In this document: one piece after another, positions 18,376-43,522 of the stretch
Position numbering within the stretch: the first letter of the stretch is position 1
Layout: every line of letters starts with the position of its first letter
Source: an uncultured Chloroflexia bacterium
GTDB taxonomy: Bacteria > Chloroflexota > Limnocylindria > Limnocylindrales > CSP1-4
NCBI GenBank assembly: GCA_963704935.1
Contig: CAVPIF010000003.1
Coordinates: 1,128,004-1,192,003, forward strand
Direction: 5' to 3'
DNA length: 64,000 nucleotides
The notes under the pieces: model-generated
Databases searched by the model: none
The model's input: only the letters and a program-made list of their open reading frames with translations
Told to the model about the DNA's origin: nothing
Translations under genes and position numbers: made by a program

Positions 18376-18391
18376 TGGCCGGGGCGAGAGG
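18376..18391 (+). repeat. att-like copy (15/16) of the 3'-terminal 16 nt of tRNA-Pro(CGG)
   Basis: TGGCCGGGGCGAGAGG versus TGGTCGGGGCGAGAGG at 43446..43461. The ~50 nt to its left resemble the Fic-side flank of the copies at 27077 and 38368. A LuxR ATG lies 81 nt to its right. Confidence 0.7.
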
Positions 18392-18471
18392 GATAGCCCC
18401 GCCACCAACGACCTTCCGATCGCGATGCGTCTCGCCGAGCCGCCGGAGCCCATCGAGCTGGTCCGCAGCGC

Positions 18472-18801
18472 ATGACGCGACGGTCGTCCCGCCGCCCCGC
18501 CGAGCGCGCGACCGACCGTGAGGTCGGCGTGGTCGCTGCCGTCCTGGTCGCCGGCTCGGAAAAGGCAGCCGCGCACCGGCTCGGCCTGGCGCACTCGACC
18601 GTGAAGCACCATCTGGCGAACGCCCGGTCCAAGGTCGGGGTGGCCACGACGGCGCAGCTCGTCTGGATCCTGGCGCCGCGCCTGCCAGAACCCGAGGAGG
18701 GAGCGGCAGAGGGACGGTCTGCGATCGCAGCCTCCGACGGTCGCCAGGCTGAGCGGAATGCAGCGGGCAGCGATGTCGATCGCCTTGACCGTGGTAGGTG
18801 A
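18472..18801 (+). CDS. Small LuxR/GerE-type HTH protein (copy L1, with a 30-codon C-terminal extension)
   Basis: MTRRSSRRPAERATDREVGVVAAVLVAGSEKAAAHRLGLAHSTVKHHLANARSKVGVATTAQLVWILAPRLPEPE, then extra residues instead of the usual stop. Its stop overlaps a GTG of the next ORF (GTGA at 18798). Confidence 0.8.
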   Translation: MTRRSSRRPAERATDREVGVVAAVLVAGSEKAAAHRLGLAHSTVKHHLANARSKVGVATTAQLVWILAPRLPEPEEGAAEGRSAIAASDGRQAERNAAGSDVDRLDRGR

Positions 18802-18860
18802 CGAGCCCATCGTGGACCGATCCATCCAGTGCCGTCGCGACCGAGGAGGAGTTGAGTTCG

Positions 18861-19538
18861 ATGGACCGTGACGACCCCGCCTACGCCGGCCAGCAGGAGT
18901 ACAGCCCCGTGTTCCTGCGGATCTACGACCCCTTGATCCTCGGTCTCTTCTTGCCGTTCGTGTGGCGCTGCCCGACGACGCACCTCGTGGAGCGATACCG
19001 AAAGCACGTGGGCCCGCGGCACCTCGACGTCGGTCCAGGTACGGGCTACTTCCTTGAACGGGCGGGCCTGCCCGACCGGAGTTCTGTCACCCTCCTCGAC
19101 CCCAACGTGAACGTCCTCGGTCACGCCTCGCGGCGGTTGCACCGGCTCGATGTCACGATCATCGAGGCCGATGTCCTCAAGCCACTCCCGGTCGAAGGAC
19201 CGTTCGACTCGGCCGCCCTCAACGGGGTGCTCCATTGCGTGCCGGGGCCACTCTCACGCAAGGCTGCTGCCATCGCCAACGTGGCCGCCGTGCTCGCCCC
19301 GACCGGCGTGCTCTTCGGTGCCTCGATCCTCGGGGACGCCGGGCGACACACCTGGCTGGCGCGGAGCATGCTCAAGGCCAACAACCGGCGGGGCATTTTC
19401 GACAACCTTTACGACACCGAGGACGGCATCCGCCAGATCCTCGAAGCATCGTTCGAGCGGGTGGAGATGGCGACCGTCGGTTCGATGGCTATCTTCGCGG
19501 CCACGAATCCACGAGTCTCATCCCTCGCCACCCTCTAG
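18861..19538 (+). CDS. Class I SAM-dependent methyltransferase
   Basis: HLDVGPGTGYFL (motif I), TLLDPN, FDSAALNGVLHCV. The ATG at 18861 was chosen; a GTG at 18798 coupled to L1 is an alternative start. Confidence 0.85.
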   Translation: MDRDDPAYAGQQEYSPVFLRIYDPLILGLFLPFVWRCPTTHLVERYRKHVGPRHLDVGPGTGYFLERAGLPDRSSVTLLDPNVNVLGHASRRLHRLDVTIIEADVLKPLPVEGPFDSAALNGVLHCVPGPLSRKAAAIANVAAVLAPTGVLFGASILGDAGRHTWLARSMLKANNRRGIFDNLYDTEDGIRQILEASFERVEMATVGSMAIFAATNPRVSSLATL

Positions 19539-19574
19539 CCGCTGTGCCGTAACTCGCGTCTCCCCGACCGCTGA

Positions 19575-19708
19575 CATGGCCCAAACGGCCAAGTAGAAAC
19601 CGCGGCGCCTCCCCGCCACCCTTGGAGGCATGACGGCGCGCTGGTCCGATCCAGGTCGACTCCCGGGCCCTCGGCCTGTTGCGACCCCGGGTACGCCCGC
19701 GCCGTCAG
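19575..19708 (+). repeat. Junction block copy P_b (LuxR 3' remnant plus LuxR-5'-like leader), not followed by a lysis cassette
   Basis: CATGGCCCAAACGGCCAAGTAGAAACCGCGGCGCCTCCCCGCCACCCTTGGAGGCATGACGGCGCGCTGGTCCGATCCA.. matches the blocks at 20512, 31710 and 41218. Similarity persists, with an insertion, to ..GGGTACGCCCGCGCCGTCA. Confidence 0.75.
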
Positions 19709-19796
19709 CGGTCGCCCTCCCAACGGACACGGGAGAAGCCAACCATGGGCAACCCGACAAGGACTGCAACCGCCGGCCGGGCCGGGCCGGACCCGG

Positions 19797-41354: not shown

Positions 41355-41480
41355 GTGAGCGGGATCGAGCTGATCCTCGCCTTCCTCGCCGGCGTCGCCA
41401 TGGGGATCGCCCTCGACCGCTGGCTGCTGCCAACCCTCGTCGATGCCTGGATCGACCGACTGCGCCGGCATGGGCAATGA
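41355..41480 (+). CDS. Lysis cassette 3, gene 1: 41-aa single-TM peptide (GTG start)
   Basis: (M/V)SGIELILAFLAGVAMGIALDRWLLPTLVDAWIDRLRRHGQ. Confidence 0.5.
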   Translation: MSGIELILAFLAGVAMGIALDRWLLPTLVDAWIDRLRRHGQ

Positions 41481-41703
41481 GCATCGTGACCATGCAGCGG
41501 ACCACCGCACCCGGGCCGACGACTACTCCTCGGCCCGGATCGGGGCCGCGGCCGCACTCACGATCGTCCTGGTCGTGCTCCTCATCCTCGATGTCGTCGT
41601 CCCCGGCTACGACGTGTCGCCTGGGACCCTCCTCCCCCTTCTCGGCGCGATCCTCGCGCTCCTGGGGCTCGAGGCCTCGGCCTTCTGGCGGGGCGTGAGA
41701 TGA
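41470..41703 (+). CDS. Lysis cassette 3, gene 2: two-TM holin-like protein
   Basis: MGNEHRDHAADHRTRADDYSSARIGAAAALTIVLVVLLILDVVVPGYDVSPGTLLPLLGAILALLGLEASAFWRGVR. Confidence 0.55.
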   Translation: MGNEHRDHAADHRTRADDYSSARIGAAAALTIVLVVLLILDVVVPGYDVSPGTLLPLLGAILALLGLEASAFWRGVR

Positions 41704-41936
41704 CGACGGTCACGGCCCTCCTCACCAACAAGGCCTACGGCTACCCGACCCGGGGAGCCCGGCGGCGCCGGAAGCCGACGATCCTGGCTTGCCTGCACCA
41801 GACCGCCAACGCCAAGGCGACGGCCATCCAGGAGCGCGCCTACGCCAATCGGGCAGGCTCGCGTGGCCCCTCCTCTCGACATTGGCCATCGGCATTGGCG
41901 CCGGGCTCGGCCTTGTCCGTGGTCCGTCGGCAGTGA
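41700..41936 (+). pseudogene. Lysis cassette 3, gene 3: truncated amidase (first ~53 codons only)
   Basis: MTTVTALLTNKAYGYPTRGARRRRKPTILACLHQTANAKATAIQERAYANRAGS matches copy 1. Similarity is lost at ~41860 and a stop follows at 41936. Confidence 0.75.
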
Positions 41937-42123
41937 CCTCGGAGCGCCCCGTCTGGTTCGCGCTTGCGACCGCGGTCCGCGCCGTGGTGATCGGCCTGAC
42001 CCTGAGCCTCGGCGGCTTGCTCCTCGGTATCCCTGTGGCGATGCCTCCGGTGGAGGACGGCGAGCGGCCGGCGGCCCCGGCCGACCCATAGTCAGGCCGC
42101 ACGGACAGGAGTAGGCTGCGTCC

Positions 42124-43299
42124 GTGGTTGACCAGGGAGGGACGACCCAGCGGCTCGCGGCAGTGCTGGGCGGCGCGCTCCTGGTGTTCACGGTCAGCGG
42201 ATGCGCCGGCGGGTCGCCATCGCCCTCCGCATTCGCCTCCCCGTCTGGGGAGCCTACGACGCCTTCACCATCTGCTTCAGCCTCCTCGGAGCCCAGCGTT
42301 CCCGCCGCAGGGACCTGGATCCCGACGCCAGGCATGGTGGCCGAGCGCTCCGATCACACGGCTACCCTCCTGAACGATGGCACCGTGCTGGTGGCCGGCG
42401 GGGAGGGCAACGCCTCCCCCCCGCCCGCATCCGCGGAGATCTATGACCCGATCGCCGGGACATGGACGGCCATCGCCGATATGCACCGCGGCAGGCGCGG
42501 CCACACTGCCACGCTGCTGCTGGACGGCAGGGTCCTCGTGGTAGCAGGCGACTGCGACGAGGTCAACCACGTCGGCTCGGCCGAGCTGTACGACCCCGAG
42601 ACGCGGACCTGGACCATGACCGCGAGCCCGACCGGGGAGGCCTGCGGCAATCAGACAGCCACCCTGCTGAGCGACGGAACGGTCCTGCTGGCGGGCGGCG
42701 AGGGCATTGCCATCGATTCCTCGTTTGCCTGGGCCGAGCTGTATGACCCGGACACCGAAACCTGGACCGTAACCGGGAACATGATCGAGGACCATCACGG
42801 GCATACGGCCACGCTGCTGCTCGACGGCACGGTGCTGGTGGTGGGCGGTGGCCGCAGCGACGGTTCCCCGGTCGGGGCCGAGCTGTACGACCCGCGCACC
42901 AGGACCTGGACCGCTGCGGGAGCCGTTCTTGGAGGGCACCACAATCATGCGGCCACGCTGCTGCCCGATGGCAGGGTGCTGGTGTCGGGAACCGGCGGAG
43001 GCGGGGCGCAGGTGTCGGCCGAGCTATACGACCCTGACAGCCGGTCCTGGACAGCGGCCGCACCCATGCTCGAGGACCGCTCCGGTCACACCGCCGCACT
43101 GCTACTGGATGGTCGCGTGCTCGTAGCTGGCGGCCAAGGATCCGCTGAGCTGTATGACCCCGAAACAGGGTCCTGGGCTGCCGCCGCTCCGGCTGGGGGA
43201 AGCGCCGCCGAGACCGCAACGCTTCTGGATGATGGTCGAGTGCTGGTCGTTGGCGGCGTAAGCGCCAGCCTGTTCGACCCCGGCGATCAGCCAACGTAG
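42124..43299 (+). CDS. Kelch-repeat lipoprotein, copy 2
   Basis: 391 aa, the same length as copy 1, with ~20 amino-acid differences. The duplicated segment is 42091..~43313, matching 15893..~17115 at an offset of 26198. Confidence 0.85.
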   Translation: MVDQGGTTQRLAAVLGGALLVFTVSGCAGGSPSPSAFASPSGEPTTPSPSASASSEPSVPAAGTWIPTPGMVAERSDHTATLLNDGTVLVAGGEGNASPPPASAEIYDPIAGTWTAIADMHRGRRGHTATLLLDGRVLVVAGDCDEVNHVGSAELYDPETRTWTMTASPTGEACGNQTATLLSDGTVLLAGGEGIAIDSSFAWAELYDPDTETWTVTGNMIEDHHGHTATLLLDGTVLVVGGGRSDGSPVGAELYDPRTRTWTAAGAVLGGHHNHAATLLPDGRVLVSGTGGGGAQVSAELYDPDSRSWTAAAPMLEDRSGHTAALLLDGRVLVAGGQGSAELYDPETGSWAAAAPAGGSAAETATLLDDGRVLVVGGVSASLFDPGDQPT

Positions 43300-43445
43300 G
43301 CCTGGCCCGATCGAGTGAGGCCCGAGCCGCCCTCGGACGTCCTGGGGGTGACCGACTGCACGTTCACGCTGACCGCTCATGCGAATGCGCGAGGCTGGGA
43401 CGCGGCCTTCGGGGGCGGCGTCGTCCGCGTGAAAGAAGGTGAGTC

Positions 43446-43522
43446 TGGTCGGGGCGAGAGGATTTGAACCTCCGACCTCATCGTCCCGAACGATGCGCGC
43501 TACCAAGCTGCGCCACGCCCCG
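43446..43522 (-). tRNA. tRNA-Pro (anticodon CGG)
   Basis: 77 nt folds as a cloverleaf: acceptor CGGGGCG/CGCCCCG, anticodon arm CATCG-TTCGGGA-CGATG, T arm GGAGG-TTCAAAT-CCTCT, and an encoded CCA. Confidence 0.9.

Follow-up and report, generated by a model that had tools for sequence, protein, structure and literature searches.

How does a chromosome come to carry, beside a tRNA gene, a row of island-like units that are delimited by copies of that gene's own 3' end and that encode no recombinase? The question is raised by a 64-kb stretch of DNA, hereafter the window, from the chromosome of a Chloroflexota 'Ca. Limnocylindria' bacterium, a member of an abundant and uncultured soil lineage. A description made earlier from the letters of this DNA (the sequence-only reading) proposed three tandem islands at tRNA-Pro(CGG), here called units A (18376-27076), B (27077-38367) and C (38368-43445), each with lysis genes and a dedicated LuxR-type regulator, and judged that they fitted no known family. 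Our analysis leads to a different answer: the region from ~11.8 to 43.5 kb is probably a stack of temperate-phage remnants at the 3' end of tRNA-Pro(CGG), which originated from phages encoding a large serine recombinase (LSR) and have since decayed and recombined. The claim of a new class of recombinase-less islands has been removed. A search of the literature found no paper that mentions both Limnocylindria and prophages.

Genes were called from codon-position GC in this GC-rich DNA and annotated with Pfam, PHROGs and PADLOC, and a six-frame Pfam scan covered 150 stop-to-stop open reading frames (ORFs), each of at least 110 aa. Related loci were retrieved with an MFS transporter gene, situated 1.3 kb from tRNA-Pro(CGG), as anchor. 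Of the 80 loci so obtained, almost every one bears the label of Chloroflexota or of a class or order inside it ('Candidatus Limnocylindria'/Limnocylindrales), and their MFS proteins show 71-87% identity.

Repeats of a tRNA 3' end

Four copies of the 16-mer TGGTCGGGGCGAGAGG lie on the + strand of the window. That at 43446 forms the 3' end of tRNA-Pro(CGG), and within the tRNA the 16-mer makes up the T-stem 3' strand, the acceptor 3' strand, the discriminator and CCA; the remaining copies are displaced from the gene (Table 1). By chance 0.23 matches are expected, and four or more were found in 0 of 100 dinucleotide-preserving shuffles. The four repeats and their identity with the tRNA, as first described, were borne out by the shuffles and by ARAGORN and Rfam; the unit sizes of 8701, 11291 and 5078 bp were correct. 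Similarity among the distal copies extends beyond the 16 nt themselves, over ~45 nt on the outer (left) side and, on the inner (right) side, into a GerE/LuxR gene.

The same tRNA is syntenic with the MFS anchor in ~70 of the loci, and 16 of these have one or two extra co-oriented 16-mers, 0.65-8.5 kb downstream of the tRNA. The repeat phenomenon therefore belongs to this locus across the class, and the earlier proposal of accretion at the tRNA 3' end stands. In one further contig (L082), five co-oriented cores (6674, 7398, 10624, 13483 and 14273) occur within 7.6 kb. An intact tRNA accompanied by co-oriented, displaced fragments of its 3' end that delimit units, the signature of an island, is thus present in the window and likewise in the 16 relatives, and supports the repeats as genuine att cores of elements accreting at the 3' end of tRNA-Pro(CGG). 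Putative attR-type junctions are seen at the tRNA and putative attL-type junctions at the distal cores, with attP-type counterparts in viral contigs.

A recombinase remnant, its phages and a frame across attP

Inside the units no recombinase was found with Pfam on all called genes, with the six-frame scan or by tblastn with the LSR of the clade described below. A remnant of a catalytic domain is likewise missing throughout the 64 kb (best tblastn E ~1; six-frame Pfam), and a Resolvase domain with the nucleophilic serine motif is absent from the window. The earlier statement that 11.8-43.4 kb holds no recombinase is thus upheld by profile scans for the interior of the units; what it overlooked is the C-terminal stub of an LSR at 43336-43467, beside the tRNA. 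That transposase, relaxase, replication and virion families are absent, as was also stated, is confirmed by Pfam on the called genes and by the six-frame scan, and neither six-frame Pfam nor PHROGs revealed virion structural or packaging genes in the window.

In a tblastn comparison, the stub is 68% identical to a reconstructed LSR over 62 aa (E=1e-19). Its frame runs toward the tRNA (...TLTAHA.A.GWDAAFGAGVVRVKEGQSGRGERI*), taking its final eight codons from the tRNA 3' end and its TGA stop from the T-loop. These last ~44 codons (43336-43467) are the only match to the LSR body in the window, whereas the three inner arms, the sequences that follow the distal cores, match its read-through tail only. 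Directly downstream of the window tRNA, ~70 nt are conserved across other genera, with changes at third positions. The stop codon of a Kelch-repeat lipoprotein gene (K2; stop at 43297-43300) directly precedes, in frame, the stop-to-stop ORF that holds the stub, so the deletion or insertion that removed the LSR body ended at the Kelch 3' end; K2 occupies the place of the deleted lysis-to-LSR region. A parallel to this end of unit C is found in L042, where an independent deletion has fused an endolysin stub to an LSR stub beside the tRNA.

Queries with the LSR C-terminus at first returned only proteins of 97-270 aa without a Pfam domain. A reading of these short homologs as something other than an LSR was dropped, ORFs with a Resolvase domain lying immediately upstream and separated by frameshifts; on the long contigs L081 and L082 such ORFs directly precede the stub homologs. 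Longer homologs carry the zinc-ribbon motif typical of LSRs, with invariant C282/C285/H298/C303. When the reconstructed LSR was aligned with four intact relatives, Resolvase (PF00239) was detected in all five members and Recombinase (PF07508) in two of the five, together with an invariant R22-E-S24-T-x-G-Q28 (R-x-S-T-x-G-Q). Intact or near-intact LSRs ending at the tRNA core are present at L005, L073, L076, L055, L079, L081 and L082, and remnants at many more loci; the former are 31-89% identical to the reconstructed reference. Several LSR genes in metagenome-assembled genomes, L081 and L082 among them, are frameshifted, either through assembly errors or as real pseudogenes. In L082 the LSR-bearing unit stands in the middle of the array, in which the shortest units measure 0.7-0.8 kb, and L081 (cores at 2449 and 10726) has a single 8.3-kb unit with a cassette of small transmembrane (TM) protein and endolysin directly upstream of the LSR. 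A second LSR subfamily (L017, L027, L070 and L079) runs antisense through the whole tRNA gene in another frame; its C-terminus is tRNA-encoded, an arrangement implying that the crossover lies elsewhere or that the att identity is longer.

The source of these recombinases is seen in viral contigs. A search with the LSR alignment recovered 21 of them, many 38-46 kb in length, and in 13 IMG/VR contigs the exact core lies at the LSR 3' end. A LuxR homolog is found just downstream of LSR and core in five of those 13 and in L097 (L085-L088, L090 and L097); those on L085-L088 and L090 are more distant from the window genes and that on L097 closer (83-90% aa identity). A tRNA adjoins the LSR/core junction in none of the core-bearing viral contigs. 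One of them, L089, breaks off 6 nt into tRNA sequence, the integrated state, and the others are in the predicted attP configuration. Portal, large terminase, head protease and head-morphogenesis proteins are encoded on L085 and L091. The IMG/VR contig L083/L084 presents, in order, a ParB-methyltransferase, a small terminase, a large-terminase fragment, a primase-helicase, a nuclease and a RuvC-like protein, and then an uninterrupted LSR of 520 aa that runs through the core into the LuxR arm, L083 being an incomplete 8-kb contig. In the ~40-kb phages of this lineage, then, the LSR frame crosses attP, and the attP core matches the 3'-terminal 16 nt of the tRNA letter for letter. In the relatives, tRNA-Pro(CGG) is a hotspot for ~40-kb temperate phages encoding an LSR.

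One of these phages can be aligned with the window itself. Unit A is colinear with the 42-kb uncultivated virus genome L097 through LuxR, a conserved non-coding junction block, a second LuxR, a second junction block, an 82-aa helix-turn-helix (HTH) protein (HTH-82), an HNH endonuclease and the start of the 'Zn ORF' that follows it, with aa identities of 83-90% for LuxR, 95% for HTH-82 and 82% for HNH. The internal order that the units have in common, as first described, is by this colinearity a phage layout, and multiple copies of LuxR and junction block are native to the phage.

Each distal core is followed, exactly as first noted, by the ATG of a LuxR gene at the 81st nt (18472, 27173 and 38464). 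The intervening arm, of which the first 26 nt are invariant in all three window copies, had been credited with patchy similarity to the tRNA; protein-coding sequence explains it better. At LSR-core-LuxR arm junctions the LSR frame continues for 27 codons past the core (GRGER-DSPATxDLPxTMRLAEPPEPxxWLRSA) and ends in a TGA overlapping the LuxR ATG, and an LSR tail that ends on the LuxR start accounts for the exact spacing of 81 nt. We compared 54 distinct arms from the window, from related genome and viral loci and from 75 metagenome contigs. Variability at third codon positions is roughly double that at second positions, and the synonymous share of codon differences is 45% in the LSR frame against 12% and 10% in the other frames. 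An origin of the arm as a decayed tRNA was also considered and is rejected on these codon-position statistics. On this pattern of substitution, the 81-nt arm is evidently an alternative C-terminal tail of the LSR under coding constraint. The LSR ORFs of diverged phage contigs pass the core for 27-37 codons, with a stop that usually overlaps the next ATG. The inner arms beside the extra cores of relatives sort into types, of which that of the window (gatagccccgc...acgatgcg..., then LuxR) recurs in L036, L042 and L064.

A history of stacking and decay can be built on these junctions. Integration would carry LuxR to the tRNA-distal end, behind the displaced core, and would leave the LSR beside the intact tRNA, its last 27 codons swapped for an 'I-stop' from the T-loop. 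With the tRNA-side site regenerated, later phages would insert there and push older ones outward. Decay would delete the virion, replication and LSR genes, would spare LuxR, junction blocks, lysis cassettes and HNH and, as cargo or for persistence, SoFic, VapC/Phd, regulators and the Kelch lipoprotein, and in the window would be complete but for the 44-codon LSR stub. Homologous recombination between repeated modules, to which a tract of 100% identity and the Kelch duplication testify, would have reshaped the array further. Serial integration followed by decay leads one to expect co-oriented cores, LuxR genes at the distal ends, lysis genes on the proximal side and an LSR stub at the tRNA, and the units would be recombinase-less through loss, not design.

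The swapped tail also invites two linked proposals. The LSR could contain a built-in state switch, in which the LSR made by the phage while free or circular would end in a conserved tail of 27-37 residues, coupled translationally to a LuxR-type regulator, and that made by the prophage would be a tail-less form ending in 'GRGERI'. Such a swap could bias the reaction to either integration or excision, without or alongside a separate directionality factor, and it offers a testable candidate mechanism for directionality control. Units that have no integrase and keep core and inner arm (units A and B; L036; L151) could moreover be shuffled, excised and re-inserted in trans as an LSR-driven cassette array, given that the tRNA-side site is restored in full and that little beyond the 16-bp core makes up the outer half-site. 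That both proposals hold jointly seems to us rather unlikely.

Content of the array and rival histories

Unit A begins with LuxR, a methyltransferase, two junction blocks, a small 2-TM protein, an Amidase_2 endolysin and a holin, and goes on with the 82-aa HTH protein, a PadR-like protein, two unknowns, HNH, the 'Zn ORF' and, on the opposite strand, Fic. Unit B comprises LuxR, DUF4287/DUF5655, MerR-GyrI, a lysis cassette of the unit A type, TetR, unknowns, HNH, Zn ORF and Fic, and unit C comprises LuxR, GNAT, a second LuxR, a junction block, a small TM protein, an N-terminal endolysin fragment and the Kelch lipoprotein. The feature coordinates are given in Table 1.

Table 1. Features of the tRNA-Pro(CGG) array, in window coordinates.
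Feature	Position	Strand	Basis and remarks
tRNA-Pro(CGG)	43446-43522	-	ARAGORN; Rfam RF00005, 63.3 bits; att core on the attB/attR side formed by the last 16 nt (43446-43461)
Distal att core, copy 1	18376-18391	+	15/16, T4>C; farthest from the tRNA, decaying
Distal att core, copy 2	27077-27092	+	16/16
Distal att core, copy 3	38368-38383	+	16/16
Inner (P') arm	18392-18475	+	27 codons in the LSR frame, DSPATNDLPIAMRLAEPPEPIELVRSA*; stop overlaps LuxR ATG (ATGA)
Equivalent inner arms	27093-27176, 38384-38467	+	
Outer flank of distal core	18256-18375	+	Terminator-like hairpin, then two GTCGCGAC-containing ~22-nt repeats
Outer flank, shorter versions	27031-27076, 38322-38367		
Identity tract	25545-27118 = 36836-38409	.	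1,574 bp, 100%; SoFic, outer flank, core and 26 nt of the arm
LSR C-terminal stub	43300-43467	+	ORF of 55 codons, homology from 43336; translation, tblastn
Accretion array, full extent	11811-43522	.	Leftmost LuxR relic to tRNA; at least 4 core-delimited units
LuxR/GerE-type HTH gene, unit A	18472-18801	+	Pfam GerE; self-blastn
LuxR paralogs	27173-27418, 38464-38712, 39955-40239		Pfam GerE; self-blastn
LuxR relics	11811-11890, 29312-29381, 30219-30352, 39110-39287		Self-blastn
Junction block	20509-20640	+	Conserved non-coding, ~130 nt; upstream of the unit A lysis cassette; self-blastn
Junction block, other copies	19575-19710, 31707-31840, 41217-41348, fragment 39048-39086		
Lysis cassette and HTH-82, unit A	20735-22180	+	Pfam, PHROGs; 2-TM protein, endolysin, holin, 82-aa HTH
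Lysis cassette, other copies	31962-33395 (second), 41470-41936 (truncated)		Self-blastn
HNH endonuclease, phage-type	24924-25373, copy 36225-36668	+	Pfam HNH; PHROG phrog_144; 82% aa identity to L097
'Zn ORF'	25358-25777, 36653-36964		Directly after HNH
Fic-domain protein, SoFic type	25726-26937, identical copy 37017-38228	-	Pfam Fic; PADLOC SoFic
VapC (PIN) toxin and Phd/YefM antitoxin	17477-18138	-	Pfam; right end of the leftmost unit
Kelch-repeat lipoprotein K1	15926-17101	+	Pfam; left of 18376
Kelch lipoprotein K2	42124-43299	+	95% aa identical to K1

These annotations agree with the gene content first listed. Small LuxR, Amidase_2, HNH and Fic are recovered by Pfam, the LysM part of the endolysin as a weak, sub-threshold match, and PHROGs concurs for endolysin, holin and HNH. 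The window holds two complete phage lysis cassettes and a truncated one, with endolysin families and the holin family phrog_9752 recognised by PHROGs. The LuxR genes are indeed small GerE/LuxR proteins by Pfam; the count of three has to be revised, since self-blastn finds LuxR-like sequence at eight places. Over residues 32-386 the Fic protein matches positions 6-359 of the 361 in the PADLOC SoFic model PDLC03963 (E=2.2e-68), and by this full-length match it is a predicted SoFic anti-phage defence gene.

By self-comparison, junction blocks occur at five places in the window, the fragment included, and two occur in L097 (4717-4850 and 6250-6385). They contain an invariant 10-bp long-range inverted repeat, TGACGGCGCG ... 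CGCGCCGTCA, around a CCCGG/CCGGG hairpin, and three of the window blocks lie directly upstream of holin-like/endolysin genes. No Rfam family and no covariation were found, a result by which a structured RNA is neither supported nor excluded; the block may serve the LuxR-type or the HTH-82 regulator as operator or promoter.

The array reaches farther left than 18376, where its edge had been placed: a LuxR relic at ~11.81 kb marks its start. The DNA left of 18376 carries, besides this C-terminal relic (11811-11890), the VapC/Phd pair, a Kelch paralog, a transporter, a hydrolase and PadR/PspC. The Kelch genes K1 and K2 form direct repeats 26 kb apart that bracket most of the array. Because of their size and position these two 391-aa ORFs (15926-17101 and 42124-43299) were considered as integrases and proved to be Kelch-repeat lipoproteins; the large ORFs at 1-11.7 kb, considered as recombinases, are a PAS-domain sensor, a hybrid histidine kinase, GGDEF, PEP mutase and DUF2652 proteins. 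The large ORFs in the islands of relatives, examined as possible mobility genes, encode a beta-lactamase, an ECF sigma factor, glycosyltransferases and methyltransferases. In several genera (L036, L038, L049 and L053) TetR, a zinc-dependent alcohol dehydrogenase (Zn-ADH) and a DUF6326 membrane protein stand just upstream of an LSR or its remnant, which suggests that this trio is a moron module travelling with the phages.

GC content is flat at ~70% over the window, in which a check of base composition revealed no compositional island. A 248-bp direct repeat (4292-4539 and 9252-9497, 96% identity), whose relation to the att system is not obvious, brackets a hybrid histidine kinase (5298-8144) and a response-regulator-GGDEF gene (8190-9119). 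Apparent hits of the 80 related loci to 5298-9119 are paralogous receiver/kinase domains between MFS and tRNA. Between the tRNA and the intact MFS gene, ORFs 43612-44193 and 44190-44870 encode N- and C-terminal MFS parts in different frames, a split pseudogene or a frameshift (43612-44870), where relatives have a receiver/histidine-kinase gene of ~1000 aa. A second proline tRNA, tRNA-Pro(TGG), lies at 57797-57873, ~11.7 kb past the MFS anchor and beside SLH-domain and LytR_cpsA_psr genes, and L050 and L076 have it too, upstream of the anchor. Its 3' end has more than 2 mismatches to the 16-mer, and no repeats accompany it.

Outside the distal cores, the outer flank holds the position that the LSR 3' end has in autonomous elements. 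Over 116 nt it matches, at 86% identity, the stretch that immediately follows the tRNA in L036 (another genus, MFS 74% identical), in which an LSR-less cargo unit of LuxR, TetR, Zn-ADH and DUF6326 is the tRNA-proximal insertion, and it bounds a ~2-kb mini-unit in L151. Of the ~69 informative metagenomic junctions with the window-type arm, only that of L151 has this flank; the rest show at least 10 flank types, at least 4 of which are LSR C-terminus types, and flank plus core has no match in viral contigs. That so rare a flank recurs at each of the three window junctions suggests that it spread locally. The 1,574-bp identity tract lies within a 2.5-kb repeat that takes in both the A/B and the B/C junction; identity drops to 82-96% on its left and to 83-88% on its right, so that divergence is discontinuous at the att site; the tract appears to be the product of recent gene conversion or recombination ending there. 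The Kelch genes are a second recent duplication. These findings bear on the earlier view of the Fic-att-LuxR junction as a preserved attP: the inner arm (core, 81 nt, LuxR) is the conserved P' side, whereas the Fic-side flank is rare (1/69), and units A and B share it because of a recent recombination tract, not as two conserved attP sites.

The alternative that survives best is that the LSR-less units, with the GTCGCGAC-repeat flank outside, the core and the LuxR arm, are or recently were satellites or elements akin to cis-mobilizable elements (CIMEs), moved in trans by the LSR of a helper phage. The cores are intact at two of the three distal sites, next to the 26 arm nt common to all three, and a single outer flank abuts the core in three unrelated contexts (window, L036, L151), between which homology is limited to ~150 nt beside the core, as for a functional end module. 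The L036 unit, moreover, is tRNA-proximal and so should be the newest, and it lies within an older LSR remnant. Such evidence is indirect. The rarity of the flank and its absence from viral contigs argue the other way, and its occurrence at all three junctions, two of them 100% identical over 1.5 kb, is better fitted by local copying. Six-frame Pfam and PHROGs detected no satellite-type integrase, primase/rep or packaging-hijack genes in the units, which thus lack the packaging, replication and hijacking functions of known satellites, and tblastn found no intact LSR in the 64 kb. We regard mobilisation in trans as improbable.

Local copying could also be taken as the main process, the array arising from a single integration by tandem segmental duplication of one unit, through unequal homologous recombination, and subsequent divergence, with the 16-mers as mere passengers. 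This would account for the 1,574-bp tract of 100% identity over the A/B and B/C junctions, for Kelch direct repeats 95% identical and 26 kb apart, for one rare outer flank at every distal core, and for lysis cassettes and junction blocks repeated at 77-89% identity. The cargo, however, is almost wholly different between units, and duplication does not predict a break exactly at the core between LuxR genes and arms of ~84% identity and an outer side of 100%. Internal repeats need not be chromosomal in origin, as L097 itself has two LuxR genes and two junction blocks, and multi-core arrays with unrelated contents are common in relatives. Duplication as the chief cause is accordingly very unlikely.

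The last alternative, an undescribed island family that is recombinase-less by design and defined by its lysis cassette and dedicated regulator, can draw on the absence of a recombinase domain from every frame inside the units and on the recurrence of LuxR and lysis cassette, and is hardly credible in view of the LSR stub adjoining the tRNA, the close homologs of LuxR, junction block, HTH-82 and HNH on the viral L097, the arm that follows an intact LSR in L083/L084 and encodes an LSR tail over its 81 nt, the LuxR homologs after the LSR in L085-L088 and L090, and the lysis cassette before the LSR in L081. A recombinase-less family fitting nothing known, as the sequence-only reading had it, is contradicted by the stub, the LSR phages, the L097 layout and the phage nature of the lysis cassette.

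Several points weigh against stacking and decay as we have reconstructed them. Units A and B end not in an LSR remnant but in another short flank, seen again in L036 and L151, and simple decay alone leaves unexplained why this flank stands exactly beside the core in several contexts. In both units the lysis cassette precedes HNH, which fits L097 and not the textbook prophage map, and each 'unit' may be a composite of several elements. Exact look-ups of three window proteins gave no match, and the nearest genomes are 71-87% identical in the MFS anchor and have no left-flank genes in common with the window. The role of the LSR clade as recombinases is assigned by sequence, and a PDB sequence search with the LSR gave a single, weak match to a resolvase-type catalytic domain. 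With these points counted, we still hold phage stacking at the tRNA, followed by decay and recombination, to be the best account of the array.

Comparison with known systems

With LSR phages of the phiC31, Bxb1, TP901-1 and A118 type, the phages at this locus share the Resolvase catalytic and Recombinase domains, the Cys/His zinc-ribbon motif and the long C-terminal region of the recombinase, and its location at one end of a ~40-kb prophage with portal, terminase and head genes. For classical serine integrases the cores are short and lie within protein-coding or intergenic sites. Here, in contrast, the target is a tRNA 3' end with a 16-bp identity block, and the LSR ORF spans attP. According to the Islander paper, serine integrases were not known to target tRNA genes (PMC4383910); tyrosine integrases are the ones that use tRNA attB sites in mycobacteria, with serine integrases at short cores elsewhere (PMC10654092). 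In a set of tycheposons, an LSR replaces the tyrosine recombinase in 27/937 elements, the tRNA location of which is unstated (10.1101/2020.12.28.424599); tRNA-targeting LSRs may thus not be unprecedented. An attP inside the integrase gene, which gains a new 3' end on integration, is known from Mx8 of Myxococcus and from SSV-type viruses with their tyrosine recombinases (PMC6070905; PMC4383910). The location of attP within integrase coding sequence is common to both; what differs here is the serine recombinase, the exchange of a 27-37-codon tail for an 'I-stop', and an attP-form stop that usually overlaps the start of a LuxR-type gene.

Elements stacked at a single tRNA, accompanied by partial copies of it and by fragmented integrases, have been described in the tycheposon islands of Prochlorococcus (10.1101/2020.12.28.424599), and Islander catalogues tandem islands at tRNA genes, which it recognises only if each island has its own integrase (PMC4383910). 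By that rule the window units would escape notice, as only the tRNA-proximal one keeps so much as a stub. The tandems of Islander/TIGER and the tycheposons resemble our array in successive integration at a regenerated tRNA, co-oriented partial tRNA copies and degraded integrases; they differ in that our array is made up of LSR phages from a Chloroflexota class, that every window unit is without an integrase, and that the displaced fragment is 16 nt. In streptococcal arrays of integrative and conjugative elements (ICEs) and CIMEs, the CIMEs are att-flanked, are without recombination and transfer genes, and stand in tandem with related elements at a tRNA 3' end. The window units appear similar in being core-flanked, in having neither recombination nor transfer genes and in their tandem position at a tRNA 3' end; they differ in deriving from phages and not from an ICE and in the serine, not tyrosine, nature of the recombinase, and their mobilisation is a proposal. 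Cryptic ('grounded') prophages (PMC6379469) are, as a general concept, those from which virion and integrase genes are deleted and in which lysis, regulatory, defence and toxin-antitoxin genes are kept, and decay of this sort is commonplace. The present case differs in that several remnants share one array, with att cores still recognisable between them.

Serine integrases are prized genome-engineering tools, and the literature has few that target a tRNA and use a long, conserved attB that is naturally re-usable. The clade at this locus is diverse (31-89% identity to the reconstructed reference), and by sequence all of its members would target one conserved tRNA 3' end through a 16-bp core, with a gene that runs across attP. 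The locus also documents phage-driven gene flux in Limnocylindria, involving defence, toxin-antitoxin, regulatory and metabolic cargo. Set beside the systems above, the array is an ordinary outcome of a known kind, prophage stacking and decay at a tRNA gene, and the design behind it, in which an LSR, a tRNA target and an att-spanning ORF are combined, is an uncommon variant.

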